A stretch of 63,500 nt of DNA, counting the filler, from Diploschistes diacapsis (lineage: Eukaryota): NCBI GenBank assembly GCA_023645945.1. It is 4 parts of 4 records of this genome, joined end to end, with 100 filler letters (N's around TTAATTAATTAA, not from the genome) between each part and the next. Parts side by side here need not be neighbours in the genome. Positions count along the whole stretch, not along the records: positions 15,991 to 31,858 come from JALAIB010000535.1; 3 more parts are not named here. One strand, given 5' to 3'. Shown in pieces: positions 19,833 to 47,700 of the stretch; position 1 is the stretch's first letter; the number at the start of each line of letters is the position of its first letter. Made by a program: the position numbers and the translations under genes. The notes under the pieces are model-generated. The model saw nothing but the letters and a program-made list of their open reading frames with translations, had not been told where the DNA came from and ran no database searches.

Positions 19833-19947
19833 TGTGACTATGTGTACCTCAATAGTGTTGTGCGTAGAGAATTGAAGCAGGGCGGTCAAATTGGATAGGG
19901 CTACGAAGGGAAAGAAGCGTCACAGTAGTTTCTTCTACTAGCACGGG

Positions 19948-19959
19948 ACGCGTACGCGT
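19948..19959. promoter_or_regulatory. Tandem MCB (MluI) boxes upstream of RPA3
   Basis: ACGCGTACGCGT ~120 bp upstream of the RPA3 ATG; MBF sites are typical of DNA-replication genes. Confidence 0.65.
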
Positions 19960-20368
19960 CGATGCGAAATCACGTGTGCGTTTTACAATGCCCACCAGTT
20001 TTTGGATAATTCGAGTAAGGATTATATCCTTACTCTATACTTTACAAGTATGGCATTTCTATACAACGCCTAGTAACTACCGTTCTTTCTCTACCCAGCA
20101 CCGAAAAAGAATCTTCAGGTATACCCAAGGTCACGCTTGGTCTTGTCGGAAGAGGGTGTCAAGACGGCAGTAAAGGTATTACCGGTGCACCAGAGATGAC
20201 TAAAGTCAAGGCAGTGATCTGACCAAGTCTGGACTCTGCGACTCGCTAAATATAGCAATATCCATATTAGACGATCATTGCCTTGGCGCCGAGATCATCA
20301 ATCGCGAGCGGAGGTACGTCCTCGAGGAGTTAATTCGTGTCATCGATTATGCCTGGTGTTTGTTGACA

Positions 20369-21017: not shown

Positions 21018-21909
21018 AGTGAAGGCAAGGCGGATGACCCCACAACGTCGGGTCGGACCAAGGAGCCTCTTTGTACAAGTCTACCCCGAGATGTTTTGTC
21101 TGCGAAAGCCGAAGTAAGCGTTAAGGTGTTTCAGGAGACATCTAGGCTCTTAGGTTTTAGGATTATTTCACTAACGGCTTGCCGCACATGTTGCCAGCAG
21201 CGTTATAACGGGTTGCACCTGGATCCCCAATCCAGCAGAACCATGCTCCTACTCCATATACGGGGCTTAGGATCATTCCCGGGTAATACCCAGAGTACTA
21301 CCCCGGTTTCTCTGCGCTTACAGATTCCCATGAGAACCAGAGCACGGGATCAGTGCAGTACATCTTATACAGCGCTAAAGCATCCATTCCCGCGATGTTG
21401 TGGCAAAGATACGGATCAACGCAAGTTGCAGGGAAATTTCCCTCTGAATATTGGAGGTGGTTTTCCCTCGGTGCCAAGAATGCCGACCCTCTAGTCTGAC
21501 TCTCCACCCAAGCCGGCTTCAGTGGGGACCAAAAACAGTCCCCCTTCAGACACAACGGAATCGTCCATTCACCGACAGAATGGATGCCTTCACTGCCCCA
21601 AGTATGGCGCCTGAACGGACGGGCAGCAAGGATCTCGATGGATCTTCTCACACTCTGCTACAGAAGAGCACCTTCTCTGACCTTCATGAAGTCCTCTCAA
21701 AACGCGTCTCGTCACCCATCTTTTATGTACGCGACCAACTACAACCGAGCTCTACCTTTAGGCCAGCGACCGCGACCTTTGTCTCTCTCTCCTCTCCCTG
21801 CAGAATCCCTCTACCAGCTATACTATCCTACGTATAAGATACCACCCCGCACTGTGGGCCACTACCAGGGGCAAAGAATTGCAGGGAAGAGTGGTTTCTG
21901 CAAGGCCGA

Positions 21910-24255
21910 ATGGCCATACAGGATTTTGGTCGCAGGACAATCGCCCAACTCTCGCCTGAGCATTATCGATGCCATCGACAACAACTTACCGAGAAGGGTA
22001 CTGTAAGAAAGCGGCATGCGGACTCAACGAAAGAAAATATTTGGGGTGTGATGATGAAATGGACCAGGTGAAGATTCATATTCTATGGGTAAACCGAGAA
22101 GAGACGCCGATACTAACACAGTTAGACATTGCGAATTTCTTGGAGAAGACAGGCTCAGCTTCCTTGTGCGTGCCACCAAGGAAGACATCATGACCTTCCT
22201 CAAGTGGATTTTGGACGTTCACCCTCGAGTCCGGAAAAGAAGTACTTTAGATGAATACTGGAGAGTGTGGTGTATGTTATATCGAAAGTCTGTTGGCAAA
22301 GGTTTGCATGCTAAAGTCATGGGAGAGGTCCGCGATGTGAGGATAAAGAATTGCCTTTCTTCGGGACTGATCGCTAATCTATGGTAGTACATTGATGGAT
22401 ACTTAACTATCAAGTACAGCCTCGACACCGGTGTGCGGGAAAAGCCAGTCATGGACGTTGATGACGTGTTTCTCGTTCTTCATCATCACTGGGTTCTAGA
22501 CACATCGGTGTTCCCGGACGAACGACAACGCCTACAGTTCTCTTTCTTGCTTCTGCTCTCTGCGTACACGGCAACAAGGCCGGCGGCCTTAGTGTACAAG
22601 GCGACCAATCGCACCAAGCAAAGAGAGCACTACCTTGGATGGGAAAACGATGTCCCCGGCGACCATGATGAAATGGATCTGGACTGGGAGGATATCAAAC
22701 CTCTCTACTATGAGGATATGACGTTGGTGATGCTCCCGAATCCGGAGGCGAAGCGAGATCTACTTGCCATGGAGATCACCCTGAAGTATACCAAAGGGTA
22801 TCAGAAGAAGCCGAACCCGTGGGTTTCTCCGCCGTGATTCGGTGGCAGCCTGCTAACAGCTCTCCAGGAAGACTTATATTCTGACTGAAGTTGACACCCT
22901 TATTTTTGATCCGATCTTGCTCATGATAACGATGGCCATCCTCGACAACGCGTTTGAGTCCAAGGTCAGCTCCATGGAAGACATAATCCGTATTCGAGTT
23001 CGTGCGCCACGACGCAGTTTGGAATTCAAGTGGCGTGCAAACATGCTCAAAAAGCCGGTTTTCCGGCAGGCCGAGCGCACGCCCACTAGCATTCAAACGT
23101 CGCCTGTGAAGGCGTTACGCTACCACACCTACCTCTACTTTCTTCAACGATTAGGTCTCCAGGCAGGACTGATGCAAATCCTTGAAGGGTATGTCCTCCG
23201 ACGGGGAGCTGGCGAGGCTGTCGAAGGTACGTGGTACTTGTCCAAGCTGACCGATGTGATGCTAAGGCCGTACAGGCGTTGCCACTCAACCTCAACTTCA
23301 ACAAGTCATGTGCCATCGGGACGCTGGTATCTACCAGGCTTACATCAATCAACGCGTCCAGTGTGACGTACAAGCTGCATTCCTCGGCCAACCTTCGTCC
23401 ACCGCTCTTTTCAAAGCCGTTACCCATATGAGCCGCCATGCTGACCCACGCGTGCCGACCGAACCAACTGCGGGCGAAGTCAACGCTCTCAAAGAGGACC
23501 CCGGGATCGTTCAACTTCGAGAACTAAGAGATCGACTATCGAGTGAAGCTCGCAAAGAAGCCGGCACCCTGAAGAAGGCGGAAACGCAAGGGACCAAGAT
23601 CTATCAGATGTACAAGGAAGCCGACAGAGCGCTTCGTTCTGCAAAAATGACAGCACTCAATTCGGCGAAGAAAGCCGCTCGACAGCAGTTTTTCGATACC
23701 ATCAGCACAATTGAGATCAACAAACAACTTGACCTCTCCATGCTCGATCTCGATGAGGGAGACTGGGAGCCGCAAAAGGTGGACCACAAGTTAGAAGAAC
23801 GACAGATCCTTGCCGACCTGTTCTGCAAGGACACCGACGTCGTGAGTGATCGAGAGAAGCTCCATCACAGGATCTGCACCACGAATGCACTTGTGGCGTT
23901 GTGCCGCAAGAAGGATGTTCCCGTACGACTCAAACCGGATCGAACGTGGGGAATCCGACACAAATGCGAATCTCCAGAAAGCCAGCCCTTTCCCAAGGCT
24001 CCGACAACGACGCAGTGCGTCTTCTGCTTCTGGAATACAAGAGAGCCATGCGAAGTCCGACTCCACAACTTCTCAACAGTGTACAAAACTCGGGATCATG
24101 TCGAACTCCATCTCAAACAATTTAAGGAAAATGATGACATCCCATGCCTGGACCCCCAATGTCAAGCTTCCGCCGTCGTCCTCCGTGGACACATGCACTT
24201 CAAGAACCATGAAGCTCGTATGCACAATTACGATGTCTTTCGAACATTCAGTTAA
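21910..24255 (+). CDS. DUF3435 tyrosine recombinase (Starship captain), intact, ~712 aa
   Basis: Exons 21910-22067, 22126-22336, 22388-22818, 22868-23226, 23276-24255 join in frame with GT-AG introns. Motifs KPVMDVDD..HHW..DTSVFPDERQRLQ..AYTATRP (Arg), YTKG (Lys), YVLRRG, MCHR, QAYI (Tyr), DVQAAFLG, HMSR..DPR.P and C-terminal QCVFC...HFKNH..H zinc fingers. Confidence 0.93.
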
Positions 24256-24318
24256 ACACCGCGCTTTAACGATTCGGATGTGACTGCGCATTCCTGGACG
24301 AACATCCGGGCATAAGGT

Positions 24319-25255
24319 TCATACGGAAGACCGCTGCTTACGAAAACCGGGAGCGCGGGTCTCAAGAATATTTTTGGGCGGCTCTAGCGGGCCATTTTCA
24401 ATCCCCACCAGCTTCACTTGATTGAACCCTAGATCGTCGGATTGAAATTTTTCGGCTTCTTCCACTTGCAAGCGCAATCTGGTTGAGAGTCCGTAGAGAT
24501 TAACGGCCTCGTTAGCCATCTCATGCTGCCCTGTAGCTGCATTTCTTGCGTTGGCGTAACTGCGAAATACTCATACGAAGGCGTGAACATGGTAAACGTT
24601 GATGGCATTAGGACGACTCAAAAAGAAGATCATGCGTTGGTGTGAGGCCGGAGCATCGGTGTCGATAAGTCGTTCGCTCTGATGGAAAAAGCTTTTGACA
24701 GTCGCGTGGTGCGTGACGTTTCGTTGGAAACCCTGCTGGGTGCCAAAGAATGTTTTTGTTCTGGTTGCTTGCCAGGAGGGCGGGCAACATCTCAGACGAT
24801 GTGGTGAATCCGGTCAATCACTGCTTCTCTAATGGCAACTAGGAGACCTCATGGTGCAGAAAAGCACGGCGCGTTGGCGTGGGACGCTTTCAACAGAGTC
24901 TGCAAACAGCGTCCTTGGTCAGATCCGGGGACGACCATCTCTGCACGCGCTCAGTGTGGTATGGGGACTAAATGGGACTCTGGTCATGCTCTGAATAGTA
25001 TGCTCTGGCAAATCCCATTTCGGCATGAGATTCCACGGGCGGGTTTTGCAGGGGGCCTGTTATGGAAGCCTTCCCTTTTCGTATCAACTTGGCCCAAGTT
25101 GATAACGACGGTCGACAATCATAAAATTTTTCGGGGAGGCCCATGAAGCCCACATCTGCGCCTGCATTCGTTGTTGTACTCTTTTGATTTACAAGCAGAC
25201 CCCTCACTCCGGTCTCTCCACAGCCGAGACAAAAACCGCGTTCTGTACTGTACAT
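24319..25255 (-). pseudogene. Possible degenerate ORF of unknown function
   Basis: Short ORF pieces (MYSTERGFCLGCG..., MANEAVNLYG...) interrupted by stops; no family recognised. Confidence 0.3.
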
Positions 25256-25579
25256 TGGTCCTCAGATTAAAACTGGTCTCCTGCGCCTCTCTCTTCACGC
25301 ATCAGTGGTTGGGAAGTGGAGGGAGTTAGGAGGGCTTGTATAGAGGCAGCATCGCCATGCAAGATCTACGTCAATGGCCTATATCCCAGAACTCACCTAA
25401 GCAATATCGACGGCATCGTTTAAACCTGGCTTAGGAGGAGGCTGTGAAGAAATCACATGCGGAATCGACCAAAAATAACATTTGGAGAGTCATGACCTTG
25501 GAACATTGTTCGCTTTGTCAAGTTAGCTCTTGGGGGATGACAGTTGAAGAGTTAAGAATCGGACATACTCTGCACTTAT

Positions 25580-27975
25580 TCATCCATCAATTTTTGTCTC
25601 TCCACTCATCTTCCTCTTGATCTCAGCCAGCTTCTTGATGACCTGCCTGTGAAGTGGATGTTTCAAGCCGTAGCCCGCGTCACCAATTTTCGCCAAAGAA
25701 TCAAGAAGATCCTCAGCAGCGTCGTGTGCTTGGGCAAGTTTTCCGCTTTCGTCAAAGCATTCGACCAAGAACCATTCAGCTAGAATTCTCTGCACGTGAT
25801 CATCCGAACCCTTGTGGCGTCCGCCTTCGGCATGCTCAATCAGCACCCTCTTATACAATTCCTCAGCTTCGGCATATCGTTTCAGGCCCACCCAACTTCG
25901 AGCAAGAAACATCTCCGCCAGTACCACACCATTGTGTGTCCTGCCAACGCTTCTGGTGCCGATGGGTAGAATTCGCTGCAGTCTCGCTTCAGCAGCTTGA
26001 TAATCTCCCAGGCCATGCTCTACTCTACCGTAATTAAGTTCTGCAAAAAGCGTATAGACGCCTTCTTCACCCCAGATGACCTTTCTCCTCTCCAGGACCT
26101 CATCCATTAGAGCTCTTGCTCGATCAGGCTCGCGGTTATCTGCTGCAAGCGCTAAGGCGATATCTTCCTTGGTGAACAGGATCTCGTCTTCGACATCGTT
26201 GCAGGCAGACAGGCCTTCCAAGGCCAGCTCACACAGCCTAACAGACTCTGAATAGCGGAAAAATCTCGATTGGACAGCTCCTAGGTGTCCCAGAGCCAGT
26301 AGAGAGTCTTTGTGTTTTGGACCATGGCTTTTGAGAGCTTGGAACCCTTCCTATGCCTTCGTATGAAGCTCGAGCGACTCGGTCAGCCTTCCGGAGTAGC
26401 ACAGGAATTGAGCAAGAGAATCAATGGCTTTCAGTGTTTGTGGGTGACCATCGCCATACATTCGCTTGGAGGATGCCACCATTTCTCGCATCATTCGAAT
26501 GGAATGTGGAAACATGTCGAGATGATAGTACGTTGCTGAGAGTGCAGCTGTGATCCGATGGCAAGCAGGGTGGTCCATGCCTCGCACCTGGATGACATAT
26601 GCCCTCACCTGTTCCTGCAATTGTCTCGCAGCTTCCCATTCGCCACACTGGAAGTACAAGATGCTGAACTTTGCGAGACGCATTGCTTCCGGTGGCGTGA
26701 GCGATGAAACTCTTTGGATGGGGAATATTGTTCTGCGTATCTGTGCTTGGATAGCGTTGAACTTGTTATCCAGATTTTGTTGGCACTGTCAAACATGACG
26801 AATGTGCGGCAGAAGCTGTGTTGAGATGAAATGTCGAGATGTGCGCATTGACACTCTCTCAGGACTCAAGGCGTTGGAATCAAGAATGATGCATTTAGCT
26901 AATGCAATAGCAGCTGCTTCGCACCATATAGCTTCTGTTCCAGGACTGTCCAGGCGAATACGCATCCATTCATGGATCAAGGGGATGCACAGTGTATGTG
27001 TCGGTCTCTTCCCCAGGACTGATGAAGGAATGCTTCTGCAAATGGTAGATTGCCTGGTCGAGCCGAACGGAGTCTACCTCACCGTCCACAAGTGCATCCT
27101 GCCTCAGAATTGCAGGGAAGACGGTTCTTTGCTGTATAAATAGCCATGAGTACTTCGGATTGGTCAGAATCTGCTCGACGAATCGCAACAGTTTGCTTTT
27201 AACATTGTCGACCCAGCCCTTGCTTATTTGCTGAGGAAAAGCATCGGAATCTTCCTGCTGCGCCCGACTAGCATCCTCCTCGATGACGGGATTCCTCACC
27301 GCCTTAATCAAAATGTCCCGGCGAATGTTTCGGTGGTGAAGGTATGCGAAAAGCTGCATGAGCTCGAAGGCGTCTTTGGCTGCTTGGTCTGTCGAAAATT
27401 CCATGCCGGTTAGAAGGGGTTCAGAATTGACATAGACGCAAGCGCGACGCTCACGGTCATGCTTGTCGGTGGCCTTCTTGCGTTTGACTGCCTTTCGAGC
27501 TAGAGCTTGACGATTATTTTTGAAATACTTGAGATACCCATTCCACGAGGTGTATCCTTTCCTGATGGTCTGACCGGCCAACACCAGGGCCAGTGGCAGG
27601 CAGTGGAGTGTCTTTGATATCTTCTTCGCTTCCCTCATAGCTTCTTCTTTATATGGTGACTGCTCCTCCGCTGTTGTAAGAAGCAACTCCTCGGCTTCAT
27701 TATCTGCCAACCTCTCAAATGAATAGAATCTTGGACCGATCGTTCCTAGGTGTTTCTTGTCACTGTCTCGAGTGGTAATCAAGATGCAGCCGCGTTCTCC
27801 AGGGGAAGTAATCTTCCCAGTCAAGGTGTTCATCATCTGCATTGTCAATAATGAGGATCCACGGCATATCGGCGTTGGCCAAATAGTGCTTTGCGGCTTC
27901 CTTGGTTGCAGCTACCTTGCATTGGATAACGATGTCACACATTGAAGCTTCAGCGTTCGCTCGAGATTTTACTTT
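25580..27975 (-). pseudogene. NB-ARC + TPR fungal NLR-like gene, 5'-truncated and frameshifted
   Basis: WILIIDNADD (Walker B), GCILITTR, LPLALVLAG, Y.MHPL/IHEW.R, kinesin-light-chain-type TPRs (G.DHP.TL); frameshifts near 27805 and 26975, stop at 26351, P-loop missing. Confidence 0.85.
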
Positions 27976-31958: not shown

Positions 31959-31979
31959 AGATATAATAATATCTTGTTT

Positions 31980-33221
31980 CAGCTTATAAAAGCTTAATAC
32001 GTTATTATATATAAGATACTATTTATTCCTCGATTGTTTGAAAGATAGCTTTCGTAATTGTTAGGGACTGTAACTTCAACATAAGATTTGGCTTGACCAA
32101 CAGATATGCCAGTTGTTTTAATCAGCTCGAAACGTTTTTAATAATAGGAGTTAATTGAATCGAGATGATTCGTGTGAAATTGCGGCTGCTGTTAAACTTT
32201 GAAGATGCCTCTATCTTCCTTTATAGATTATTATTAGCCAACATGTCCGTGTTTAGGTTCTCCATTAATCTTTTCAGATATGGTATATAGGTAAAAACGA
32301 TGCCGAGACTTTGAATCAGCTGCGTCATTAACATAAACGTCCATACTAAAAATGACATAGATCCGTCTACGTTTTTAAAAATCAACATAATCTGCGTTAT
32401 ACTGCATATTATTACACTATATTTTAGATTAACATGGTTCAGAAACGTAAACTAGCCAAAAATGCATACAATATGCGAACCGAGAAAAACGTAATAACAA
32501 TAAACTTCGTCTTAGAAGGCAATTGGACATTATATACGATAACGGAAGGAAGGACAATAAATATAGCATCTATAATAATACTAAGGAGTTCAAGATATAT
32601 ATAAAAGCCTTCAATATCGAAACACTGCGTTCCTTTATAGTCCCATAATGAAAATAAATAGCATAAAAATGCGAAACCGAGTATTCCTATAACGACCCAC
32701 AGGCCAGTTATAGCGAGAAGAATAAAAATAGCCCTTTAATAAAATACAACGGGCGTGAAAATCCTGACGAAGAAAGTAACCGATAATTTTGAGCAAGCTT
32801 AGCTTAACATAAAAAAAATCAAAAAAGCATAAACGGACTGAATTAATTAGTTTATCTTCGGATCGGAATCATCAATTAAGATTACCTTTTTCTGAACGAT
32901 AAGCTCGTCCGTTGAAACGTTGTCCACGATTAGCCCCAAATTATGACTTATAGCATTCGATAGAACTGCCGTTTGACATATAATAAATATCTATTTAATG
33001 TTAAAAATCGGTTTCTACACGATAAATGATAGACGTATAATCGAAAGAAAAATAAAGATATTATTAAGGCCTGTAGAACGCGTGATATGAAATCTTGTCA
33101 GTAAACGGGCGAATATAATCATAATCGTTGCAATAAGAAGACATCAATTAAAAATATTAATTAAGGATTTGTGATCGGTAGAAGAATCCGTAGGATAGGA
33201 ATGCACTGATTGTAAAGACAT
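31980..33221 (-). pseudogene. RIP-inactivated PTH11-like / rhodopsin-domain integral membrane protein
   Basis: MSLQSVHSYP..STDHKSLINIFN*CLLIATIMIIFARLLTRF...G.(DD); further hydrophobic helices with many TAA/TGA stops. Confidence 0.65.
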
Positions 33222-34834
33222 AATGTTTTTAACTTTCGAGATATGGAATCGACGAAAAAATGTTCATAGAAATGAGAATAATAAATAATTAACATTATCA
33301 AGATAAGCCAAATGGAAGGTCGGTGGCGCTCGGGTAATCTCTTCCAGCTTACCTTTCCTTCCTACCGGATGCTAATTTGTTCTAAAACATTGCTCGGACT
33401 GCTGCCTTACGAGCACCGTTAAATAATATTCTTTCTTAATTGCCTTTATGAATCTAAAGCACGTTACGAGCTGCTGAACTTATATTGAAATTGAACTTAG
33501 GCTTAGAAGGCGATCTTAGGAAAAATTAAGCATAGATTATAGAAAGGAGTATATAATTAAGATTAAATTGGAGTTAACACAAAATAAATCGCAATTTTTG
33601 TAATGTATATCTCGAACCGAAATTAAGTTATTCTACGGGGCCACTAAGGCAGCGCTAGTATTAAACGTGGACAAAATAATTTCTCCACTTGTATGCCGGA
33701 AAGCAATACCGATTTTCCCGATCTTTATTTATATCAAGCCATTGCTTATCGTCAAGAAAGCCTTACTTTTTATTCTAAGCTCGGTACTGCGATATTATTA
33801 GAAACAGCTGTTATATAGATTAAAAGGATTAGGTATAATGTGATTCGATTACATAATGTTTTCAAATTGTGTACATACAGATTTACAAATAAGATGTTTA
33901 TTACTAAGCTTTCGGGGTTAAAGGCTTATATCCGTAATAAAGAAATTGATTTGAATATAGAATAAGGAAAATTATATCGAGATAAGAAAAAACGTAAGAT
34001 ATATAGGGGGCTATCCGAATCCTATATTATAGGGATTCCGATTTGGAAAGTTCTTAACTATAATATAAGAATGGTACTGTTACTAATAGCTAAAAAATAT
34101 CCTCTAGTTAAACCTGTTATATTAACTTTTATATGACTGCATCTCAGCGTATAGCTTCACCGTAAAGCTTTAGTTCTAAGACTTTGTTTTTACTATCTAA
34201 GTAGAATCGTAATTTCATCGCTTTCTAAATTATACCGTCGGGTTTGTCTTCTCTTTCTAAACCCGGCATGGGCAATTCCGAATTTCCCAAGGTAAAGAAA
34301 AAGCTGCTTTCTAGACAAACTCTGTTTTGGCCCTTCAGCTCGATGGTAGATCCGCCGTAGTAGGTGCACCAGGTGCACAGCTAGTTCAGTGTGTCATCAG
34401 GAACGTCAGCTGCTCGGTTGCTGGTTGTTATCTGATCGATTGAGGGGAAAGTAATAAAATTTTCGTAGTTAAGTCTAGTAAGGGGCTGAGAGTGGGGGAA
34501 AAGGCAAATTCTTTAAAGTTCTTGGTGGGACTGGGTGTTATTACGAGATCGGTAAGCCTAGCGATTACTACATTTCGTACTATCTTTTTGAAACAAGTTG
34601 GGATCAAAGCCTGATTTATCATTATGTAACGCATTAGAAGCAGTAATAGTAGTTATACGAAAACTCGTTTTGTTCGGTTCATTTATCAATATAGATTTTA
34701 GTCACGATTGGATTGAATCATAATTAAATTTTTCGCATCATATAATTTACTCTCTTTAGTTATTTATTCTCTAAATATTATTCCGCGATAATTATAAACC
34801 TATATTTGAAAGTCTTAAGCTTCCTGGAAAATTA

Positions 34835-35950
34835 ATGTCCAAGACGCGGAATGTATATTTCATTTAATTATCCTTAAAGTCGTATTGGTGGTGTATAAAG
34901 CATTGGTACCTTTACGTTTGATTTCTGCGAAGAAATAAGTAAAACAATAAGACTATAATTTAACTGAGTTCTATCAGAATTATTATGCTACCGACTATAT
35001 TGCGGAATTCGTGAATGCTATCATTAATATACTCTTCGTTTATTTTGCGTAGAAAGGTGCAAGAAATTGTTAGAAATATCATTACGATAGAATTTTCTTT
35101 CTCGCATTTATCGGTTATAGAAACGTGGGCGTTAATAGTTTCGCATTTCACGTTACTATGAAGCGTAAGTATTCTTATAATATCGGCTCTATCTCTAACT
35201 TACTAGGCTAGATTTAATGCAATTGTGTGATAAGTTATCTATAATATATATCGCTTGTATCATGTTTTATGCCGTCTGGGCTTATGGTTTATTAGTTATG
35301 AATCGTTGGTTTCTAAGTTTTTTAATTATAATGCTGGTTTTACTATTTATACATTTCTACATTCTTTTCCGAAGTAAGTCTTTTATACAAGGCGAGACAT
35401 GCGTTATATTCGTTAAGATGATAATATAGATCCGTTTTTTCAATAAGTGGTTTTTGCCTTGTTAATCATTGCAGGCCTAATTAGAGCTGGACAACAAATC
35501 AGGACCTTTTCTTAACTTGATTTAGCTTAGGATTCGAGTAACAAAATTACGTACGAAGAGATGCTTTAGATCGCTCGCATAAGCATACCTCTTCTCCTCT
35601 TCGGTTTTTTCATATGGATTCTGGATGACAAGCTTTGCGAGAATCTGCGCACTATTAAGAAAACGATTAGGTTACCGTAAGGTATTCTTCTAGAAGCACA
35701 TAGATACTAATAAAATAATTTTATCGGTTTATACGGCGGTGTTTATCTAAAATAGACATATTTTCTCGAAAATCGTTACGTACAACTTCATTGTCTGGAA
35801 TAAGCTAAATCCTAATTAACGCTGCATATGTTAAATTATATTAAATATACGGCTTCGAACCTGCTTAAATTAAAAGAAGAAATATCAAATATATTAGTTA
35901 GATTATATATATTTTATTCCGGAAGTACGGTGTCAAGATAAATTAACTTG
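34835..35950 (+). pseudogene. RIP-inactivated alkaline ceramidase (YPC1/YDC1 family)
   Basis: T.DFCEE|NYYATDYIAEFVN, AFHVTMK, MQLCDKL.IIY, WILDD.LC..LR.....LP*GILLEAH. Confidence 0.85.
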
Positions 35951-36369
35951 AAGTGAAATCAACTAGAAGGTGTCATATAGGACATTTCTTTTCTGTCTAG
36001 ATCCAGAATCTATGCTTTTTATACCTCACTCGAAGCTTTCTATAGTATAATGACCGATTTTTCTTGTGATAGTCGTTAATTTACTGATGGATTGTTAGAG
36101 GTAGGTCGTGCCGACCTAGTTGTTAAGGCGATATCTATAACGATACCGCTCGGCATTTACTGTATATAAAGTAGAATTTGCTCTAAATTAATTACGAATT
36201 ATCACTCACTTTTCTAATTAGATTTATAGGTTTTTATATGCCATTTCTGCCTAACCATATCTTTCAATTTAGCTTATCCGTCATCTCTTATTTAGTTAGT
36301 GTAGAAATGTTTCTAGCAGTACGCCTTATCTTTATAATAATTACGGAGTAATACTTACGGCACTACGTC

Positions 36370-37760
36370 AACTAGAATATGTATAATTGGGTCGAATTAC
36401 CCCTAAACGCCGAATACTACCTAAACAGTAGACATAAAGAGATAAAGAAGGTTCAAAACACAATATTACTAAATAACGAAACACTACAGTATATTAACAA
36501 AATTAGGATTTTAAGAAAGAATCCTCAACTAAAAGAAAAAGATAGGGTCTAACAAACAACCTTAGAACACGCAGACCTTCTAAAAAGCTCGATCATATCA
36601 AGATCAGATCCTTCCTTATCGATAAACAACCATAAATACCAGACGAAACGAAGAAAGTTAGTTATCGATTCAAGCTACTAAAGGACGTGAAGATCCACTT
36701 AATATTCCATGTTAGATGCCTTGAACCGCCGCATCTAAATATATTAATATAGGAAACCTATTATTTCGAAAGATAACGAGAACGAATACGAAGTCGAGAG
36801 GATCCTAACCTTCGGATTTAACGGGTTTTTAATTAAATGGAAAAGGTATTTATCGAGTTAGAATATATAGGAATCAAGAAAAATCTAATAAATTACAACG
36901 ACAAACTAAAGAATAAACTAAAAGAGTTTTGGAAGACCCCAACGGGGCATTCAAAGAAAAAAGGAAGCCTGGACGAAAAGATAGAAATTTGCATTTTTAT
37001 ATCTTCGCCCGCTGACCCAGGCCGGAATTAAATCAGCGGCCTTTATATTAAGGAATGCACGTTTTACTGACTGAGTTACTGGATCTAATTGTGAAGGAAA
37101 ACATACGTAAAGGATATTTTATCTTAATAATAATCTATTTTACCCAACGCGAGATAATATTAAAGAAAAAGGAGTAATAATACGATCCGAGGTGTAAATC
37201 TCGTCACGTCTTAGCCATTTTTGTATATAAATTAATTATCGGTGACAGAAAGGTTACGTGATTGATAGACAATAGTTAACAACCGTCTAGCGTTTGGCAT
37301 CTAACAGGATTAGAAGATGTATATAAAGAGCGTCGTTATAACTTTTATAAATCCTAACGTGTTCAGATCTTATATTATTCTTATCTAAAAATATCAATTT
37401 AAATAGAATAAAAATGTGGATCTCGTCTATACTTTTTATTTTATTCGTAATAAATCACGCTTAAGAGCGATTTCTTCGACCAGATTTAATAAAGTTAAAA
37501 GAAACTTCCCATTCACTTGCTGCTATCGTAAAGAATAAGGGTTCTTCTTAAATTTTCGACGTTTTTTGCGATACGCTCACGGCTGACCGAGATTTCCTCG
37601 TGTGAATTAAATAATACCTTATATAGGATAAATCGGACTATAATCTCTTACCGATTCTTAAATATTGCGAAAAACTTTAAAAAACTAATCATCACTTAAT
37701 ATGATATATCCTTAATCCCTCCTTAACGTTATTAAAAACGCCTTTTTAATATCATAACAA
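36370..37760 (+). mobile_element. Ty3/Gypsy chromovirus 3' remnant (integrase C-terminus, chromodomain, polypurine tract, probable LTR; LTR end approximate)
   Basis: LRTRRPSKKLDHIKI..F.I, IH.IFHV..LEP, NEYEVERIL (chromodomain), purine tract AAAGAAAAAGGAG at ~37162 followed by an LTR-like start. Confidence 0.75.
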
Positions 37761-37989
37761 ATCTAGCTTCTAATTATTCCGAAATTTGCTATCTTTACAT
37801 CCCGATATTTCGGGCGTTTTACGAACCGCTGCCAAAACCAACTAAAATAGGCTCGACGAGATCAACGCCTATTAAAAAGTTCCGATTCTAACATTCTCGG
37901 ATACTTAAATTAAAAGTATAAGATAAAAACGCCGATCATCTTCTTACTTAATTTATTCTTATACTTACCAGAACGTCGTAATATTTAAA

Positions 37990-39720
37990 TATCACATACC
38001 CGAAACATAACTATTTAATTAACGTAAGCGCCGAAACTCAAAGCGGCTTACGCCTCAATACAATAAAATTCTATAATACGTTTCTAAAAGACAAAAACAC
38101 GGTCATCCCGATAAAACTTAAATTCCACTAACTTTCTAAGATAACTTATCTAAGATTAACTTAACTAAACGCGCCTTAAAAGAATTAAATCGAAAAATTA
38201 CTCAAACGGCCTCAAATTCCCGTTTAACCTACTCACGACCGTACCGACCGATTACTTGACGTATATTCATTAAATTAAAAAAGAATTACCGACCTTTTAT
38301 ACCAATCGTTAAATATATTCACGATTATAAAGCGAAAAACTTAAAAAACATAAAATAGATTACGAGATACGATAGTTTAGATCTATCGGACCTTCGAGAT
38401 ATACGTGAATAATATAATTATTATATTTAATATTAACTAATTTCTAGTTTTTAAAACCTTTAAATCCTTTAGACCCAGCAATGAGCTCACGAACTAATTC
38501 CCGCGTTTCGAAATAAAAATCGAAATTAGCTTCGAGTAATAAACCCTCTATAAACACTTCCAAAAGCACTGGTCCGTATAATCGAAATTTTCAACAGAAT
38601 CTCGTTAATGGTAGCGTCTTCCTACATACGTATAGGCACCCGGATGGTCGGGTACCAGCGAAGCTAAATAACTAGAAAGAAATTAATCGACGATTTTCAC
38701 AACCGCGACCTTCTTTTTCGCCATTTAAATTCTTAAAAGAAAGATATGCGGAATTTATACAAGTAGATGTAGATGTAATGAAGGAAAAGTAAGTAATAGT
38801 ATTAATAATTCCAATCATTAAAAAAGATATTAAAAACGTTAAATACTGTTCGAGAAGGATCGTATTTATAAACCTCGATTATCTTACCGATAGCACGCTT
38901 ATATTTAACAATCCAGATATATATTACGACGCGCGTCCCGAATAGCTTAATCGGCGGGTATATGATAAACTTAGTAATTATATTATTCCATTAATACAAG
39001 ACGATTTTCTTTTAGCGCCGAACTTCTTCATAGCGGTAAAGGAACCGGATGGATTTCTGGCGATAATAAACAAATAAGCGGGCTATAACGGTGTATTAAA
39101 AGCGAAAGGTATATATAATTTATAATCATACGGTTAAAATAAATTTATCTTCGACAATAATGCTTTTACCATTTCGTCCATTTACCACGGTAATTAGCTT
39201 AAGATATATACTATTTATTTTTTTTAGCTAGCTAATTTTGGAAACCGGTCTGAATATTTTATACATTAAGTCAAGAGATGGTTTATAATAAATAACCTCG
39301 AAATCTTTTTTAAAGGTATAATATACTATCGAAATGGTCGGGACTAGGTAAAGGAACGGAAGGACGAGGCGATTAAACGAACAAACGAGAGAATAAATAA
39401 ATATTATATTAAAACGCTCGTTATCGATATAGATATTATACCTACCTCCAGCTTCGTAAGTAAAACAATATTAGATAAAATCATTACGGTCGAGGCGCTT
39501 AGTCAAAAATCTAGAATTTTATAAACGAAAGATAACAACATAATTAATCATTATGAATCTAAGACATCCTTAATTAAACTCTCGCTGGAGCACAGAACCC
39601 CGATCAAAGGTTCCAATAAATAATCAAAACGATCGCCCCAGTCTCGACGGAAATGACTTAATACCGACGACTACGATCTCTTTTAAAAACCTAAATTGCA
39701 ATTATCGAAACCATCCGGGT
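37990..39720 (+). pseudogene. RIP-inactivated member of a widespread uncharacterised fungal family (possible PD-(D/E)XK-like nuclease fold)
   Basis: F*DNLSKINLTKRALKELNR, DLSDLR, STGPYNRNFQQNL, PDIYY.ARPE*L, LAPNFF.AVK.PDG, DNNAFTISSIYHG. Confidence 0.7.
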
Positions 39721-40107
39721 TCTCCCAGCAATTTGAAAAACAAGTCTTACGGCAATAGTTATAGAAAAGCTAACCTCTAATGAAAAAAAGGCTTGATACT
39801 GGAGCTAGAAGTTGCTAAGATGATCGATCGTAGGAACATTAAATGATTGTATAAATTAATATAATAACAGTCGTTTTGATTTGACGAACTGATCGGTTTG
39901 GGAATGCGAGTTTACCCGCGACGGTAAAGCGTTGTTAAAAGACTTATTTATAAAACTCGCTAATTCTACGTTACAGCATATCTAAAGATGCTGAATGAGT
40001 TATCCCCTCTTATTTACTACTTTATAGTATTTATACGCGATTATTACGAATTAGGATCCTATCAGTTCCTCTCGATGATTAAATATGTAAAAACGATGCG
40101 ATAATGA

Positions 40108-41441
40108 ATTAACTTATAATAATTTTTATAATAATTCTTTATACGAGCCACACCTATATAAATTATAAAAAGTTGATTTTAAAATAAACGTAAATTAGAT
40201 CCGCTTAAGTAATTATATAGGAAACTAGATCTATGAAATGCCGTAGAACTTTAAAACTGATGAAATTAGGGTTTAAAGGCCTTTTACGTTTTAATATAAC
40301 CTTTAAAAAGTAATTATAACTACCTTTATTTAGCCCCTATACTTACTTAAATACTTCCTCATCCTCCCTCAAACCCTTTTTAACCTTGTCGTCGCCTCGA
40401 GAAGTATTTCCGCCGCCGCGATCTTATTATCCTTCCCGAAACTCATCTTATTACCCTTATTAACGACGAAATCTTCCCTATCTTTCTTAAAGCCCGCGAC
40501 CGCGTAAAAGACTGAATTTTCGTTAACGGGTATTATATCGTCGTGAAACGTAGCTTCTTTAAACTCGTCTATAAGTATCACGATACGTAAACGCGTAATA
40601 TCCGTAAATTAAACGATACGTAAAACCACGTATATCTATTAAAAGATTTATTTTTTCGAAATACGCGTGTATAGAAATAAAAACGAATATATATTCGCCG
40701 TTTATATTCTATAATACTTTATCCTTTCGCCAATAATTCCTTTTTTTTCTTCGAGCACAAGCAGCGCGAACCAGAACGCGAAGAGATCGACAGACGTATA
40801 AGAAAACTGCGGCGAGCAAAGGTCTCTCTCCGAGCGGCAAGGAGCATCTCTGGGGATGCGGGCGGGGCGGAGGTGTCGAAAAAAGACTATTATAATGCTT
40901 ATAGGTCGTTAATAGTATCAAAAGACGGGAAAGGATCACCGCCGAGGCTCGAGAAAAAAGTAAGAGAAGAAAGTAAAGGAGGAAAAGGAGCGTATTGCAA
41001 ACACCCGAGCGGAGTTAGATGCAATAATAAAAAACTTACAACACCGGTTACTAATCCTGCTGTCATCATCGCCGCCAACAGCACCCCCATAGTTCCCAGC
41101 GTAGGCCTCCCTTATCTTTCTTTTTTAGCCCCCTCTTCTGCCCTTTTCCAGCCCTCCATCCCTCTACTCCTTCCTCCGCAACCAATCACGCAGCTAGTTA
41201 CCCAGAATATAAAAAAAGGAGAAAAAACAGGCAAAACAGCAAAAGGAGCAGGCGAGAGAAGAGAAAAGAAAAGCAAAATATAAAACGCGCAAGACAAATA
41301 ATTAGGTGACAGTGTCGCAAGATGGCTATTTAGATATTGATAATTTAGATACCTTAAAAAGCGACATTTTAAGTTCTAAAAATGAGTTTTAAAAAAAAAG
41401 TGACCTAACTTAACCTGTATGTAAAATAATTGTCAGCCCTA
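40108..41441 (+). mobile_element. TIR-less internal copy of the bounding DNA-transposon family, with a MULE-like N-terminal domain remnant
   Basis: 40108-40183 aligns to 31740-31858 and 41283-41441 aligns to 47801-48038, mostly by transitions; the frame from ~40384 reads ...EIFP.F..ARDRVKD*IFVNG..IVV...H.T*TRNIRKL. Confidence 0.65.
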
Positions 41442-42306
41442 TAGTCTAAGATAATCGTTAATATAGATTAAAATTTAAAAAAGTTGAAACTTTAGATAGA
41501 TCCGTCCCAAATTCGGCTTAAATCGAATCCAAACGAACCGTATGTTTGAAAAAGAATCTCGACCGGAAAAAAAATATCTCTTTTCTAAAACCTTGAGCGA
41601 CATATCAATTAATAGGTTTTAAGAATTCTACGAAAAAATCCTTCGTAACGATTTTGAAGTTTTATCGAAAGATCAATTAATCGATAAATTATTAAAATTC
41701 GGAGAAGATATACACTACTTTCCGGCATCCTTAATTTCGTTTTCGATAAGAAATCACCGATGTTATTACGTGTTTTTCTTTTTAAAACGTGCGCATCTAT
41801 TCGTACGAACTTTTTATGCGTTAAAGAAGTATGAATAAAAAAAAACAAAAAAACTAAACGTACGGGGTTTAAAAACCAATTCATTCATAACTTAGATTAA
41901 ACAAAATAACGTAATATAAAAACTTTTATATTAAATATAAAATTCTTTTTTTAATCGTTTTAATGGAGCCCTATCTTGATTTAAAAGAGGCATTTATTTC
42001 GAACCATACCTATAAAGCTCGTGAATAATTTTTAGATAGTATAACGCTACAAATTATACCTATATTCAGCCTTACTTTAGGATTAGCTTTTCATAACGGG
42101 AGAGAAGAAAGAAAGGAAAAGAAGAAGAAGAAGGAAGAAAAGGAGGAGGAGGAGGAAAAAGAGGAAAATGGAAAGTCGTGTCCATTCTAGCAAAACTTAT
42201 AGTTCTAAAGGCTAGACAAGCCGGATCATGTTAGATCTTTCTAACTGTTCCGAGAATTTCAAACACCGCTTCTAGTAGCGGCAGTTAATAAAACTAAAGA
42301 ACAGAA

Positions 42307-43965
42307 ATGTCAAATAGCGTCAAAATCTTCATGTGGGAATCATCGGAACTGGCCTAGCTGGCCTACGGTGTGCAGAAATCTTGATCGAAGAGGGCATTAA
42401 TGTTACCATTCTAGAAGCACGAGATAGACTGGGTAGCCGCGTAAGTTATTGTTGAAAGAATTAATACTCAGATATCTGAAGGAGCTTCTAGATTCATCAA
42501 TCTAGTCTTATTAGGCAATTAGTAGATATGTAAGTATATTAAAATCTTAAAGTTATATTAAAAGACGTTGTTAATAAATATATAGGAGGCCTAATTGGAT
42601 TTATAGAACGGATAAGAACCCTATAAGTAAACTTATAAAAGATATAAATAGCCCGCTTGTCTGTCTTAATAAAAGCACCCGTGTATATAATTCTGATGGC
42701 ACGCTTATGAACAGTCAAAAGGCTTCGGAAGGGTTCAGAATGGTCTAAAATATTCTTGCGGACGCTTTCAAGTATAGTAATAAAAATTTTATAAATATAG
42801 CGCCGAATTTAAGCCTGAAGACATTCTTTCAAGAAAAATTACGAACCAGCGTTCTAGAAGAAGGAGCGAAAAACGCAGTCTTAAAGCTTGCGGAGATGTG
42901 GAGCGGCTTTATCGGTGATCTTTTTGAAAAGCAGAACCTGAAATAGATTTGGCTTAAAGAATGTCTTGATGGAGGTATGATATACCACTTTTTTCGACGC
43001 CTTTTAGGACTAAATGCATTTAGATAACCTGTTTTTATCGAATACTTATCAGGCAATAATAAATCGTGTTGTTGAACCCGCGGTGAGTTATGTTCAAATA
43101 TTTCTTTCTACCGTTGTCTAGTGCATAGAAAGCCATGCCGGAAATATAAAAGATCGATAGGTTACTATAACGACAATAAATGACAACTTTGATTTCAACG
43201 AAATAATAGTTATCGTTCCTCTAAACTGTTTAAAAAGGGATAACCTTAAGTTTATACCCGAAATACCGTTAAACATTAGCCGCGCTATCGCTTACGTTTC
43301 ATATAACCGTTTAAAGAAAGCTCTTCTTGCCTTTCCTATAGTTTTTTAAAAGAAGTTAGATTCAAAGGCTATTTATAACGAACACGTTACTCGTGACATA
43401 GAACATATGTTTCCGACCTTTATACATTTCTTACGTCCTACCTATATCCCAAAAGAACAGCGATCGTAGACATTGGAAATGATGGCGTTATCATCGTTTA
43501 TTGTATTTAAAGGTTACGTTTAACTTGTGCTTCAGTTTTACCTATGAGGTACGGCCGGTGCTCATATGGTGTTAGTTATCATAAACCTAGCGTCTTTAAG
43601 CATAAAATACTATAAGATTATTAATACGTTATTTCGGCTATTCTATAACCGATTTTCCAATTACCGAACAGATTACCCTGAATACGTACCAACCGCTATA
43701 GTCGCTACAAACTGGCAGAAGGACAAGTTTGCGGGGAAAGATTTATATACAAATTTCAAAATTTATGAAGGTAGAATACAAGCCGGAAGTGATCTAATGT
43801 TCGATGATGGAGTAAAGATAATAAGACATGGAATGCTAGAAAGGGGTGTCTGGTTTGTTGGAGAACATATAGCTCTTTTTGTTGCACTAGACACGTCCAT
43901 AGGCGTATATTAGAATAGTGAAGCTGTTATAACCAGGATTATTAAAACACACGACTTTTTTATAT
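42307..43965 (+). pseudogene. RIP-inactivated flavin-containing amine (polyamine) oxidase
   Basis: HVGIIGTGLAGLRCAEIL...VTILEARDRLG.R (Rossmann), GPNWI..T..NPI, W..DKFAG..Y, WFVGEH. Confidence 0.85.
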
Positions 43966-44084
43966 AATAAAATCAAACGGATAAGAAAGGTATGCTTTAT
44001 AAATAAGATTTATAACGATTAGATAAGTTCAATATTCTTTTAAAAGCTTAATAGCGTGTTTCTTTTAATTATTTAATACAAACC

Positions 44085-44630
44085 TGGCCGCCGTGTGCGC
44101 GTACAAACAGACCGCGATTAAAAAGTTAAGTAACATAAAGCCGTACGTGGCCTTTCTATTAGACGAGCGGTAAGAAGAAGAAAGAAGGGAAGACGAAGAC
44201 GCGGTCGAGGTAGCAGTACGTTACGATGACGAAAACGGTATAAAAGGTCGTGGCGGAAACCTATAGCGCGTAAACGGACTTTATAGCGTCCTCCGGGTAC
44301 CGCATCTCGGAAATAAGAATAAAAAACATAAAGTGACCCGCGTACGCGAAGACGGGGTTCGTGATGCTAATAAAGGCCGTAACGAAGTTGCTGGGTAAGA
44401 TAATGGCTCGTCCGGGTGTCGGGTACGCGCCTGCCCCGCCCATGGCGATGATCCCGGCGATCAAGATGCTGAAGGCGGCGAGGGCAGAGAATCAGTTGAA
44501 CCGGTCGAGGGTGCGAAAAAGCGAGACGAGGAAGGTTAAGATAGCGAAAATGCCGGTAAAGAGGAGGACGTAAAGGGAACGCGGCTGAAAGAGGGCGCCA
44601 AAGGCGATCTACCCGGTTACCAATTGAGCC
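44085..44630 (-). pseudogene. Internal fragment of an Mtr-like amino-acid permease (Aa_trans)
   Basis: AFISITNPVFAYAGHFMFFILISEMR.PEDA; both ends missing, stops present. Confidence 0.8.
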
Positions 44631-45099
44631 TATATTATAGATAACGAAGGTAACCGTGTTTCAAGATAAGATATCGCGGCTTACGGGACCGAAAAGGATA
44701 AAACCGACGGCGCCCGTTGAATGAACTAAAATTATACATTAAAAAATAAGGAGATAGAAAAAAGGGTTTGACATGATAGGAAATAGGGAGCGGAATAATA
44801 TAAAAATAAGAAAAGCGCAGACGTTGTACCTTCGGAATAGCGGACTTTAAATTAAATAAATAAATAGTTAATAAAGGTTGCAAAAACTCCGACTTAGATA
44901 GTCAGAGTTTCGCGTTATTAAATAAATCGAACCCGAATGCCTTTCGAGATCTATAATAAGGCTTTTGATACTATATCTTAGAATTTAACTCGCTTATCTG
45001 ACCCGGAAGTTAGCTGTTTACACGTTTTAACTTATTAACGTATTAATATTTCGATAATATGATACTAAGGATAGGATACTTAAGGCTCATTTCGTAAAG

Positions 45100-47639
45100 C
45101 GAGAATCGAATTAAGATAACTATTATGAAATATTTAATAATCGTTAAGCGACGCCCGTACAATGATTTTAATAATAATTTCTTCGACATCTATAAATTTT
45201 GGGTTAAGATCGATTATAACGAAATTTATTTTACGTTTTATTATGCGTCTGCCTTAAGCATGAAATTATATACGGTTTTTATTGTCGAGCGTTGTATATA
45301 TTGTATATCCATTCTTAAATAGGGTCCTAATTCGTATTTTTATATTACTATGGATGCGTTTATTCTGTTTATGAGATCCCGCGTTATCCTAAGGTTTATT
45401 ATTTAAAGCTTTACGTTTGCGAGAACTTTCTTCGTTTAATGTTTTTAATCATTTAGGTAGTTTATCTACGCATTTTCTTTGATTAAGAAGGAATGATGGT
45501 TTCCTAGAATTGGATGGCTAGAAGGTCCCTAGATATTCAAGATCATCGTCGTCGTTTAGAGAATCTGGTATAATAATATCGCTATATTAAAAATAATTGT
45601 TGTGTTAAGGATCGTTTTGGTTATATTAAGGTTTTATCGGAATCCTCGTCGGTTTAAACGATATATGATTTCAGTAATATAATAGAAGATAAGAATCCAT
45701 TGATAGCTTACTTTGATATTCCGTAACCGTGCCTCTTCGCCCACGAAACTAAATCGACCCAGAAATAGTTTTCCAAGGCTTAAACAACGTAATTAATAAG
45801 TTATTAACTCGCTTTATTCCAGGCACGGCTCTGAAATAAATAACGAGAAACGTTTTTCTTTATTTTAACAATATTTCGTATCGAAAAGGGATTCGCGTAA
45901 AGATCGATATTAAAAACTACAAAAGAATCGAAATCGAATAAGATATCTTTAAAAGACGTTATAGAAATAACGACCAAAGCAGGCCAGAACGAGTTAAAAG
46001 AAACTTGAAAGAAAGGAAACAATAAAAAGACGGAATAGTTATATATATAAATAAAGAAATACTAACGCAGAAAAAGTGCCCAATAACTTTTATAATAGTA
46101 TGTATCTCGACCTTATATTTAGTTTCAAGATCATTAAGCCCGTCTATCGCATCGTTATTAATTTCGATAAGGATTATGGTATCGGTATCAAAAGATATTT
46201 GTTAGATACGTGGAACGAAGCAAAATTGTCTTGCTTGAATAAAGAAAAGGCGTCGGAAGAGAAGAGACGAGGAACAGAAAAAGGTTCTTATATATTAGTA
46301 TAGACCGAGTAGGACATTTCAGCGCAGGAAGAAAAGGATGATAGATCAGAAGTTAAGAAAAAGGCACGAAAAACATGATTAAATAAACATACATAAAAGA
46401 ATAAAGAAATAGAATTAAAATATAATATTATTTCGACTTAAGATCAGGACCCGTAAAAACGTACGACATACTTTAAAATTTTTAAATAAATAAAATAGTT
46501 ATTTATTAAGAAATATTAGTAACGTTTAGACCTAAATGTTACTATTTTTTGCTTTTTTTAGTTCTGTAGCAATTTGGGCGCGGTAAGATAAGCAAAGTTT
46601 ATTTAAAACGGGTTATATTGAACCAGATATTGCTTACGAGGTCTCCCGCGCCGTTACTTTATATCTATTTTATCGATAATCTTTACCTCCCGTTTCTATT
46701 ATTCGTAAATAACAGCCGTTTGAGATACCTTTTACTCGCCTTTAATCTCGGGTTCTTTATCGGGAGAAATTGGTAACGAGAAGCGGGGACGTTTTAGATA
46801 ACGTTTTATTTACGGTTCTTTTTTAACCGTAAAGCGTAACCGCTTTCCTTATATAATACAACAATGATATCGTATGCTTATTTATATTACTTTAAGGTTC
46901 CGTCTTTTTAACTTCTATATCCGTTTCGTTCTCGTTCGATTGTTCACAACTACTCTCGACGGTTAAATAAGAATTAAATCCCGCTAGACTTTCGTTATTA
47001 AACGTGCCCGTTTCTTTTTTAGGTTTTGATGAGGGAAGGCCGTTACGGCGCGGATTAGGAATCTCGAAGACCCACGGTCGGTTTTTGCGGAAGGCGGTAG
47101 ATCTAGATCGACACTTTTTATTAATAATAAAATCATTGAATTAACCGATGTTATAAAAAGTCATATCTAGCTTCTAAACCCGGTGCGGAGGTCGGTTAAG
47201 TGTCAGGCGAAGCCTATTTCTTTTTATTTCCTTTAACAATCGAGCGATCCGTAGTATAAACGCCGATATTTTTACCCTTCTTTTTATCGCTTTCTTCGCT
47301 GGCGCTATAACTGGAACCGTAGAGGAATTAAGGTTCCTATAAGTTACTTAGAATTTCGTTATTTATTATTTATAGAATATAATGATAATAAGCCTTATTT
47401 TCAGCGTTGGCTTCGACTTTTATAAGATCTAGAACCGGCTCGCTTAATAGATCAAAACACTTCCTCGGTAACGACGCTGTCATATTAATAATTTTAATCG
47501 AATTATCGTCTTAGGGTGGTTCATTCGGTTTATAATTTGGCATTAAAGCTGGGAAGTTCCGCCCTTTATTTTAACGATAGAAGTATTTAACGCTGTATGT
47601 CGATCTTTACTAGGCGAGTATGTCGCCGGAAGGGGTCAT
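45100..47639 (-). pseudogene. RIP-inactivated multi-exon gene of unknown function
   Basis: ATG near 47639 followed by a codon-like frame riddled with TAA/TAG; no family recognised. Confidence 0.35.
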
Positions 47640-47700
47640 TAGAATTAAATCGAGTTTATATTAATTAAAGTTATTTTACGATAAAGGTATAAAACGTTAT

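Follow-up and report, generated by a model that had tools for sequence, protein, structure and literature searches.

A probable Phoenix-family Starship captain and its 5' junction in a genome assembly of Diploschistes diacapsis

For large horizontal transfers between fungi, Starships, elements of 15 kb or more with cargo between their ends, are the chief candidate vehicle, and in lichens several fungi live in close contact. The recombinases of these elements, the captains, are compared with those of Cryptons, which are used as the outgroup; CryptonF is a small unit of a few kb that has a recombinase with a GCR1_C-type domain and carries no cargo. Here we describe a captain gene in a stretch of 63,500 nucleotides, filler included, from assembly GCA_023645945.1 of Diploschistes diacapsis. 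This stretch (hereafter the window) consists of four parts of four records joined end to end, which need not be neighbours in the genome, and the gene lies in the part taken from JALAIB010000535.1 (positions 15,991 to 31,858; all positions are those of the window). We think it fairly probable that the gene is an intact Phoenix-family (clade 1) captain of a Starship-type element in a Lecanoromycetes-like fungus, that the mobile unit starts at 21409|21410, and that the insertion is old. The type of captain gene is already well catalogued, and the 5' junction is the main new addition.

The experimentally proven case is HhpA of the element Hephaestus in Paecilomyces variotii (PMC10104507). HhpA is a DUF3435 protein encoded by the first gene of the element. 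As described in that source, Hephaestus inserts at TTAC, its ends carry target-like sequence, no duplication is made, and the target follows an N7-A rule. The window captain is likewise the first gene at the 5' end, reads inward, and lies within the Starship range (~2-7 kb) of the boundary. As described, the catalytic sets are of one kind, a tyrosine standing in the HxxR box; in HhpA, Y381 is reported to be essential (PMC10104507). The two proteins belong to different families, HhpA to fam02 and the window captain, by proxy, to fam01.

The Phoenix family is fam01, clade 1, of the starfish classification, in which captains were annotated across 2,899 genomes and the family is patchy across fungal classes (PMC11162782). 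According to the same source, the type element, Mpha_Phoenix of Macrophomina phaseolina, has the direct repeat TTTACA, captains of clades 1 and 3 carry YxxR in place of HxxR, and a captain is usually found no more than 2 kb from the 5' boundary. The window locus resembles this family in the full-length identity of its captain to the member lining1_223650 (68.6%), in its YxxR box, in a TTAC-like junction comparable with TTTACA and in the closeness of the captain to the 5' end. It differs from the Phoenix cluster exooli1_134015 in its Lecanoromycetes-like host. The starfish tables give no element boundaries for members of that cluster, the element count being 0 in the Lindgomyces and Exophiala xenobiotica genomes (PMC11162782).

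The first lichen Starship, Tangerine of Xanthoria parietina, was published only in 2026 (PMC13486527). The accompanying survey counted 1,508 captains in 554 lichen-associated genomes and recorded Phoenix and Galactica types in Xanthoria; of these, none but Tangerine has mapped boundaries. Galactica, Tardis and Prometheus are the three transfer clades highlighted there, and Phoenix is not among them. Tangerine and the window locus are alike in the lichen host, in the position of the captain (390 bp from the 5' end in Tangerine, 500 nt here), in an adjoining NOD-like receptor (NLR) gene with a signature of horizontal transfer, in repeats that show repeat-induced point mutation (RIP), and in occurring at one locus in all genomes seen (PMC13486527). 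The Tangerine captain, however, is truncated to 283 aa, with no core-binding domain and with two active sites missing, and belongs to a family described as restricted to Lecanoromycetes (PMC13486527). The window captain has 712 aa, aligns over its full length with standard captains and groups with Phoenix. Over its N-terminal 180 residues it can be aligned with standard captains of four further classes, which places it outside the Tangerine family. Tangerine has mapped ends and an empty site (PMC13486527), whereas only the left end is mapped here and no empty site was seen.

The captain gene and its family

The gene occupies 21910-24255 on the plus strand and has five exons, which are open in changing frames.

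21910..22067, plus strand: captain exon 1, with the ATG at 21910 and the MAIQ.. start common to homologues
22126..22336, plus strand: captain exon 2, placed by spliced translation and homologue alignment
22388..22818, plus strand: captain exon 3, DUF3435 profile 1-85, with R187 and K259
22868..23226, plus strand: captain exon 4, DUF3435 profile 98-208, with Y375xxR378
23276..24255, plus strand: captain exon 5, DUF3435 profile 215-418, with H400 and Y409, a coiled region and a C-terminal Cys/His pair; stop TAA at 24253-24255

An earlier note on this DNA had claimed an intact five-exon captain of about 712 aa, and this was borne out: the exons splice in frame to 2139 nt, an uninterrupted run of 712 codons followed by TAA. 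The four introns (58, 51, 49 and 49 nt) are all of the GT..AG type and have CTAAC-like branch sites. The translations of three of the five exons matched PF11917 (DUF3435; profile length 418) in collinear order and together spanned profile positions 1-418. The scores were 54 bits for exon 3 (E 1.8e-14), 90.8 bits for exon 4 (E 1.2e-25) and 112.9 bits for exon 5 (E 2.3e-32), all above the curated gathering cut-off of 25.8 bits. In the same Pfam scan of exon translations, exons 1 and 2 gave no match to DUF3435, and no exon matched any other Pfam domain. The gene is thus confirmed as intact and as coding for a DUF3435 tyrosine recombinase of the captain type found in Starships.

Searched against longer proteins, exon 5 matched 16 of 2671 candidates at E<=1e-3, and all 16 carry PF11917. 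The family is large, with 678 relatives of exon 5 at the same threshold among cluster representatives. All 16 homologues align to the spliced captain end to end, with no gaps at the exon joins. The captain is 78.4% identical to a partial protein of Exophiala xenobiotica, 74.1% identical to one unnamed homologue, and 68.6% identical over 711 columns to a protein of Lindgomyces ingoldianus (P0003), which also has 712 aa. Catalytic columns were read from an alignment of 14 of the 16 homologues, P0010 and P0011 being omitted for internal deletions. R187, K259, Y375xxR378, H400 and Y409 are invariant columns in all 14, and the captain has the same residues. They fall in the motifs at which the earlier note had placed them, TATRP at 184, YTKG at 257, YVLRR at 375, MCHR at 398 and QAYI at 407. 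The set R-K-(H/Y)xxR-(H/W)-Y is complete and in order, and the spacing of R378, H400 and Y409 (22 and 9) matches that of Cre, which we take to be 23 and 9.

The structural model was made not for the window's own protein but for P0003 as a stand-in (AlphaFold2, 14-row alignment); its mean predicted local distance difference test (pLDDT) score was 67. Searched with Foldseek, the PDB yielded 329 matches to this model at E<=10, and 22 matches at E<=0.001. The rows listed at E<=0.001 were all Cre or Cre-derived chains (best E 1.2e-4, TM to target 0.55-0.59), with alignments over 400-440 columns, and the next matches were to integron integrase, XerA, XerH, Flp and lambda integrase. Through this stand-in, which is 68.6% identical to the captain, a two-domain recombinase fold (core-binding plus catalytic) is predicted for the captain.

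Two related copies were available for comparison. L001, a 6.4-kb metagenome contig, carries a captain copy that is 75.5% identical in nucleotides to window positions 21896-24244. In exons the identity is 73-81%, in introns it is 45-57% with indels whose lengths are not divisible by three, and GT..AG is retained at three of the four introns, which lends the gene model independent support. The dN/dS ratio between the captain and this copy is 0.12 over 702 codons; the L001 copy has one in-frame stop. The copy in X15, an RNA library, is ~96% identical (122 differences in 2918 aligned bases). The captain itself shows no RIP signature (TpA/ApT 0.57, composite index -0.59, GC 0.507), in agreement with the earlier note. 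Of the C-terminal zinc fingers proposed in that note, a Cys/His pattern conserved across homologues is present. No captain exon gave a Pfam zinc-finger match, and a PDB sequence profile search with the C-terminus gave two C2H2 zinc-finger rows only. Since both rows are non-significant (E 0.77 and 1.4), the feature is taken as a Cys/His pattern that is conserved, and not as a demonstrated domain.

The family was assigned from rows of the starfish supplementary tables (PMC11162782). Table S4 classes lining1_223650, which is P0003, as fam01. The 50%-identity cluster exooli1_134015 comprises Exophiala oligosperma, Cladophialophora psammophila, endpal1, Lindgomyces ingoldianus and Metarhizium robertsii. 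Median captain identity is given there as 35% within families and 26% between them, and the 68.6% identity to lining1_223650 is therefore a strong proxy for membership of the Phoenix family fam01. The suggestion that the element was undescribed is accordingly weak, in that the captain's 50%-identity cluster already stands in the starfish tables as fam01 and lichen captains have been surveyed (PMC13486527); the 5' junction is the part that is new.

The left end of the mobile unit

The left end was mapped to 21409|21410, with the captain ATG 500 nt inside, and is followed by one conserved feature.

21410..21560, plus strand: conserved 5'-terminal block with a (T/A)TAC junction, a 14-bp palindrome and a degenerate second copy

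Similarity to L001 continues upstream of the ATG in patches and stops at window position 21410. Three X15 contigs depart from the window sequence at 21410, 21417 and 21418, and the upstream sequence of each is different. The terminal pattern (T/A)TAC-N5-AACGCA..GGGAAATTTCCC is common to five copies (the window, L001 and the three X15 contigs), which stand in one register: TAC, five variable bases, then AACGCA(A/G)GTTGCAGGGAAATTTCCC. The bases preceding TAC in the five copies are GA, AT, TT, TT and AA, and the sequence further upstream is unrelated in all of them. Since a shared terminus in one register is joined to five different upstream flanks, the five copies appear to be a single mobile unit that has landed at five sites, its junction marked by a TTAC-like core. 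These differing flanks were seen only in L001 and in X15, which is a marine sample of low depth unrelated to the window source, and not in demonstrated same-species copies.

The perfect 14-bp palindrome AGGGAAATTTCCCT lies at 21430-21443, and a degenerate second copy of its motif lies 25 nt on, at 21451-21469 (direct repeat D1). Both are conserved in L001. Other short inverted or direct repeats in 18700-21950, the D1 pair excepted, were chance-like. One X15 flank resembles an inverted copy of the terminal block joined through TTTAC; a 24-nt motif from that flank (<=3 mismatches) and a degenerate form of it had no matches in the window. Rfam and a tRNA scan found neither 5S rDNA nor a tRNA near the junction, and a 5S-targeting element was ruled out on that ground.

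If it works as HhpA does in Hephaestus, the captain would bind to both ends of the element and would cleave and rejoin DNA via Tyr409, aided by R187, K259, Y375xxR378 and H400. Recombination would take place at a short TTAC-like core common to the element termini and the target, so that the element could be excised footprint-free and then reinserted elsewhere. We infer the catalysis and the target core, and likewise the cargo membership and the 3' end considered below.

Sequencing cover to the left of the junction was also inspected. X2, a run labelled as a single organism, represents a relative ~1-2% diverged. Its depth, summed over contigs, is 30-73 over 19.2-21.3 kb and 14-18 elsewhere. This was not read as a repeat left of the junction, the depths being sums over contigs and the ORF there being GNAT-like. 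X3, a rock metagenome, has no cover left of ~19.2 kb and covers 19.9-27.0 and 28.2-31.7 kb at ~98-99% identity. An element boundary near 19.4 kb, considered from this cover, was dropped, because the depth is only 3-6 and the uncovered part is no evidence. Positions 19426-19932 form a separate X2 contig at ~5x the flank depth (72.8 against 13.9), probably a dispersed repeat in X2. An open reading frame (ORF) of 186 aa at 20523-21080 (minus strand), with no Pfam match and its start ~390 nt from the element junction, resembles a GCN5-related N-acetyltransferase (GNAT) by protein-language-model features (score 0.93, a lead only).

The right side, the host and possible transfer

Three features to the right of the captain bear on the extent of the element.

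25313..25495, plus strand: relic of a second, divergent captain gene at its 5' end (first exon), with ~46% aa identity to captain residues 1-57 and an in-frame TAG
25583..27966, minus strand: NLR pseudogene with NB-ARC and tetratricopeptide repeat (TPR) regions, probably cargo, placed by Pfam scan and homologue alignment
31959..47700, no strand: AT-rich RIP-like block with relics of ordinary genes (Pfam)

The second captain relic, found by tblastn, starts ~1.06 kb past the stop codon of the intact captain, and its local alignment to the captain scores 110 (shuffled maximum 36). It could have arisen through tandem or nested insertions. Its upstream DNA shows no alignment to the captain terminal block beyond 38 nt before the ATG.

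The NLR pseudogene lies 1.3 kb downstream of the captain. Two G-run frameshifts and two in-frame stops interrupt it, and ~300 N-terminal residues are missing: of a 1094-aa homologue, only residues 302-1093 are aligned. A protein of Tothia fuscella (Dothideomycetes) and unnamed proteins match it at 78-86% identity. At the two frameshift sites X2 has differences (26981 and 27801) that restore the frame at both, and X3 restores it at one. The X2 contigs lose collinearity at 27958-27969, and relative to X2 the window seems to carry a deletion of at least 5.8 kb there.

The right end of the element may lie outside the window. Comparison of the window with itself gave no long repeat touching 18.7-25 kb. 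At 49497-49506, 10 nt match the terminal motif in reverse complement, which is no more than chance would give. The X15 cover stops at 24430, resumes over 25052-25512 and is absent over the NLR pseudogene; a unit end taken from this gap was rejected, X15 being a low-depth RNA library. In the AT-rich block, the GC content is 0.34, TpA/ApT 1.10, the substrate index 0.71 and the composite index +0.38. Its relics comprise an NB-ARC N-terminus, a fungal rhodopsin domain, an amino-acid transporter and a weak ceramidase match, and no recognisable transposons. Such a pattern over 16 kb would be expected of a large duplicated segment after RIP.

Some further observations on the right side of the window are listed here in their own right. 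A short glutamine-codon-rich simple repeat at 28158-28686 has very high summed depth in three runs, and the contigs of the source run break there. A stretch of 815 bp (30619-31433) is skipped cleanly by an X3 contig, which joins 30618 to 31434, and is possibly a small insertion here. At 31424-31591 (plus strand, opposite to the truncated NLR) lies a lone N-terminal P-loop piece of NB-ARC, for which tblastn found no match to the N-termini of the truncated NLR's homologues. An uninterrupted NLR of 865 aa, with NACHT (NPHP3_N) and ankyrin regions, is encoded at 59280-61874 (plus strand), with near-tandem internal repeats at 61.3-61.9 kb. Near the left edge of the window, a tRNA gene at 501-582 (minus strand) scored 38.4 bits with Rfam; ARAGORN reported an undetermined type with a four-base anticodon, and it is probably an intron-containing fungal tRNA.

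The host was judged from a flanking gene to the left of the captain, a single-exon ORF of 802 aa at 16292-18697 (minus strand). Of 8000 candidates scored, 55 proteins matched it at E<=1e-3, the best unnamed one at 55% identity and the named ones at 36% at most. Among the organism-named matches, 20 of 22 come from lichen-forming genera, two of which were verified as Lecanoromycetes; the remaining genera presumably belong to the same class. The host therefore looks like a Lecanoromycetes-like fungus of the lichen type. Fifteen further runs contain 7-11% of the sampled words, one of them was aligned with the window, and no claim on habitat or host is drawn from these runs.

The captain is 78% identical to a protein of a chaetothyrialean yeast (E. 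xenobiotica) and the NLR pseudogene up to 86% identical to a dothideomycete protein, against at most 36% for named matches of the flanking ORF, in a comparison that is uncontrolled, its comparator being one fast-evolving gene. These cross-class identities suggest horizontal transfer, and they would fit the transfers among lichen-associated fungi that have been proposed (PMC13486527).

Age of the insertion and competing explanations

A number of observations weigh against a whole and movable Phoenix-family element at this locus. The X2 captain contig starts at 21359 and crosses the junction by 51 nt with the window's flank. No empty site was seen, the one relative with a contig across the junction (X2) carrying the same junction. 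The X2 captain also lacks 1 nt at 23948, which, if real, shifts its frame. Within the terminal block, the window alone lacks 18-21 nt after 21450, between the palindrome and its second copy: relative to the window, X2 has an insertion of 18 nt and L001 has 21 nt at this point, and at 21441 an X15 contig runs over into the GC-rich motif seen in those insertions. On the right side, no terminal inverted repeat or direct repeat partner of the 5' terminus scored above shuffled controls in 24256-63500 (best score 23-25; 20-30 in 30 shuffles). The sole adjoining cargo-type gene, the NLR, is a pseudogene, and a scan of 231 ORFs (126 + 105) gave no gene for DUF3723, patatin or ferric reductase. As to the gene itself, contigs of X15, the only RNA library examined for splicing, read through all four captain introns with no splice joints, and the expected splicing was not seen; these contigs may represent DNA carry-over or unspliced RNA. 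In the P0003 model, pLDDT falls below 50 at residues 368-443, the span with three of the catalytic residues. Finally, the fam01 assignment was made by proxy, from identity to one member.

Since the junction is common to X2, the terminal block is partly deleted and the NLR has decayed, the insertion reads as old, with a captain gene that happens to be whole in the window lineage. In the X2 lineage the locus looks inherited and decaying, because X2 has the same junction together with the 1-nt captain deletion. This captain copy has probably not moved recently, and the gene could still act. The earlier note had taken the gene to mark the start of a potentially active Starship, which is supported in part. 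The junction 500 nt before the ATG agrees with the start, and no 3' end was found for a bounded, cargo-carrying element. The shared junction, the broken NLR and the deletion in the terminal block weigh against an active, cargo-carrying Starship, and no empty site was seen.

The observations on X2 can also be read in another way. The locus may hold a fossil or domesticated recombinase gene, in which the ends are non-functional and the frame is intact either by chance, the fossil being young, or for a host function. The same junction in X2, the deletion in the terminal block, the decayed cargo and the dN/dS of 0.12, as a mark of long-term constraint, are all consistent with this. The constraint, however, was measured against a distant copy and would reflect the history of a transposon, not of the window locus, and the family is patchy across classes. 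A host-essential gene is itself unlikely, given that the X2 copy is seemingly frameshifted, the L001 copy has a stop and the second copy in the window is a relic. We regard a fossil or domesticated gene as unlikely on balance. Rather doubtful, in our view, is that a unit of ~3-3.5 kb (21410 to ~24.4-24.8 kb) moves alone, as a Crypton-like element or a cargo-less mini-Starship, with the NLR, the second relic and the AT-rich block as unrelated neighbours. CryptonF, of the same enzyme superfamily, would be a possible model for such a captain-only unit. The GCR1_C domain, which we take to be part of fungal Cryptons, is absent here, as exon 5 matches DUF3435 only and no Crypton-type extra domain was found, and Starship captains form clades of their own (PMC11162782). 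A captain-only unit would explain why similarity to L001 is confined to 21410-24244, the downstream 1.8 kb of L001 being unmatched; at 75% identity, however, non-coding or differing cargo would not align anyway. The second relic ~1.06 kb past the stop looks as if units had landed in tandem, and the ORF Pfam scans found no Starship auxiliary genes except NLRs. Against this, no 3' terminus was found near 24.4-24.8 kb, the adjoining NLR has its own cross-class identity of 78-86%, as if it had travelled with the captain, and the family, by proxy, has typed members with cargo.

An assembly chimera or contaminant, in which a captain block from a lichen-associated black yeast was misjoined to mycobiont DNA, was also considered. 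The likely source is a lichen metagenome, and the best named relative of the captain is a yeast of the Chaetothyriales. A separate contig of the likely source run, however, covers 15991-28514 with 0 differences, which argues against a misjoin, and in the single-organism run X2 the flank, captain and NLR have similar depth (13.9, 17.7 and 15.0) and a contig crosses the junction. We consider a chimera highly improbable. The opposite extreme is a still-mobile Phoenix-family Starship that moves between lichen-associated fungi of different classes, with the (T/A)TAC junction, the palindrome GGGAAATTTCCC and the second half-site forming the captain binding site, and with the ~96%-identical copies at at least three sites in the marine sample as its traces. 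This also seems quite unlikely to us. Its hosts would be Lecanoromycetes-like here, Chaetothyriales for the nearest named relative of the captain and Dothideomycetes for that of the NLR, and the X15 flank with the inverted block joined through TTTAC would resemble a circle or tandem junction. If it were true, the GGGAAATTTCCC block as a captain binding site would be new, no Starship family having had such a feature defined so far.

We therefore keep to an intact Phoenix-family captain at the 5' end of an old insertion in a Lecanoromycetes-like fungus. The finding leaves the knowledge of how Starships work unchanged, and is sound but fairly ordinary. The intact full-length Phoenix-type captain, together with the mapped 5' junction and the terminal block, makes a usable substrate for a mini-element assay, and the locus adds one further data point for transfer among lichen-associated fungi.

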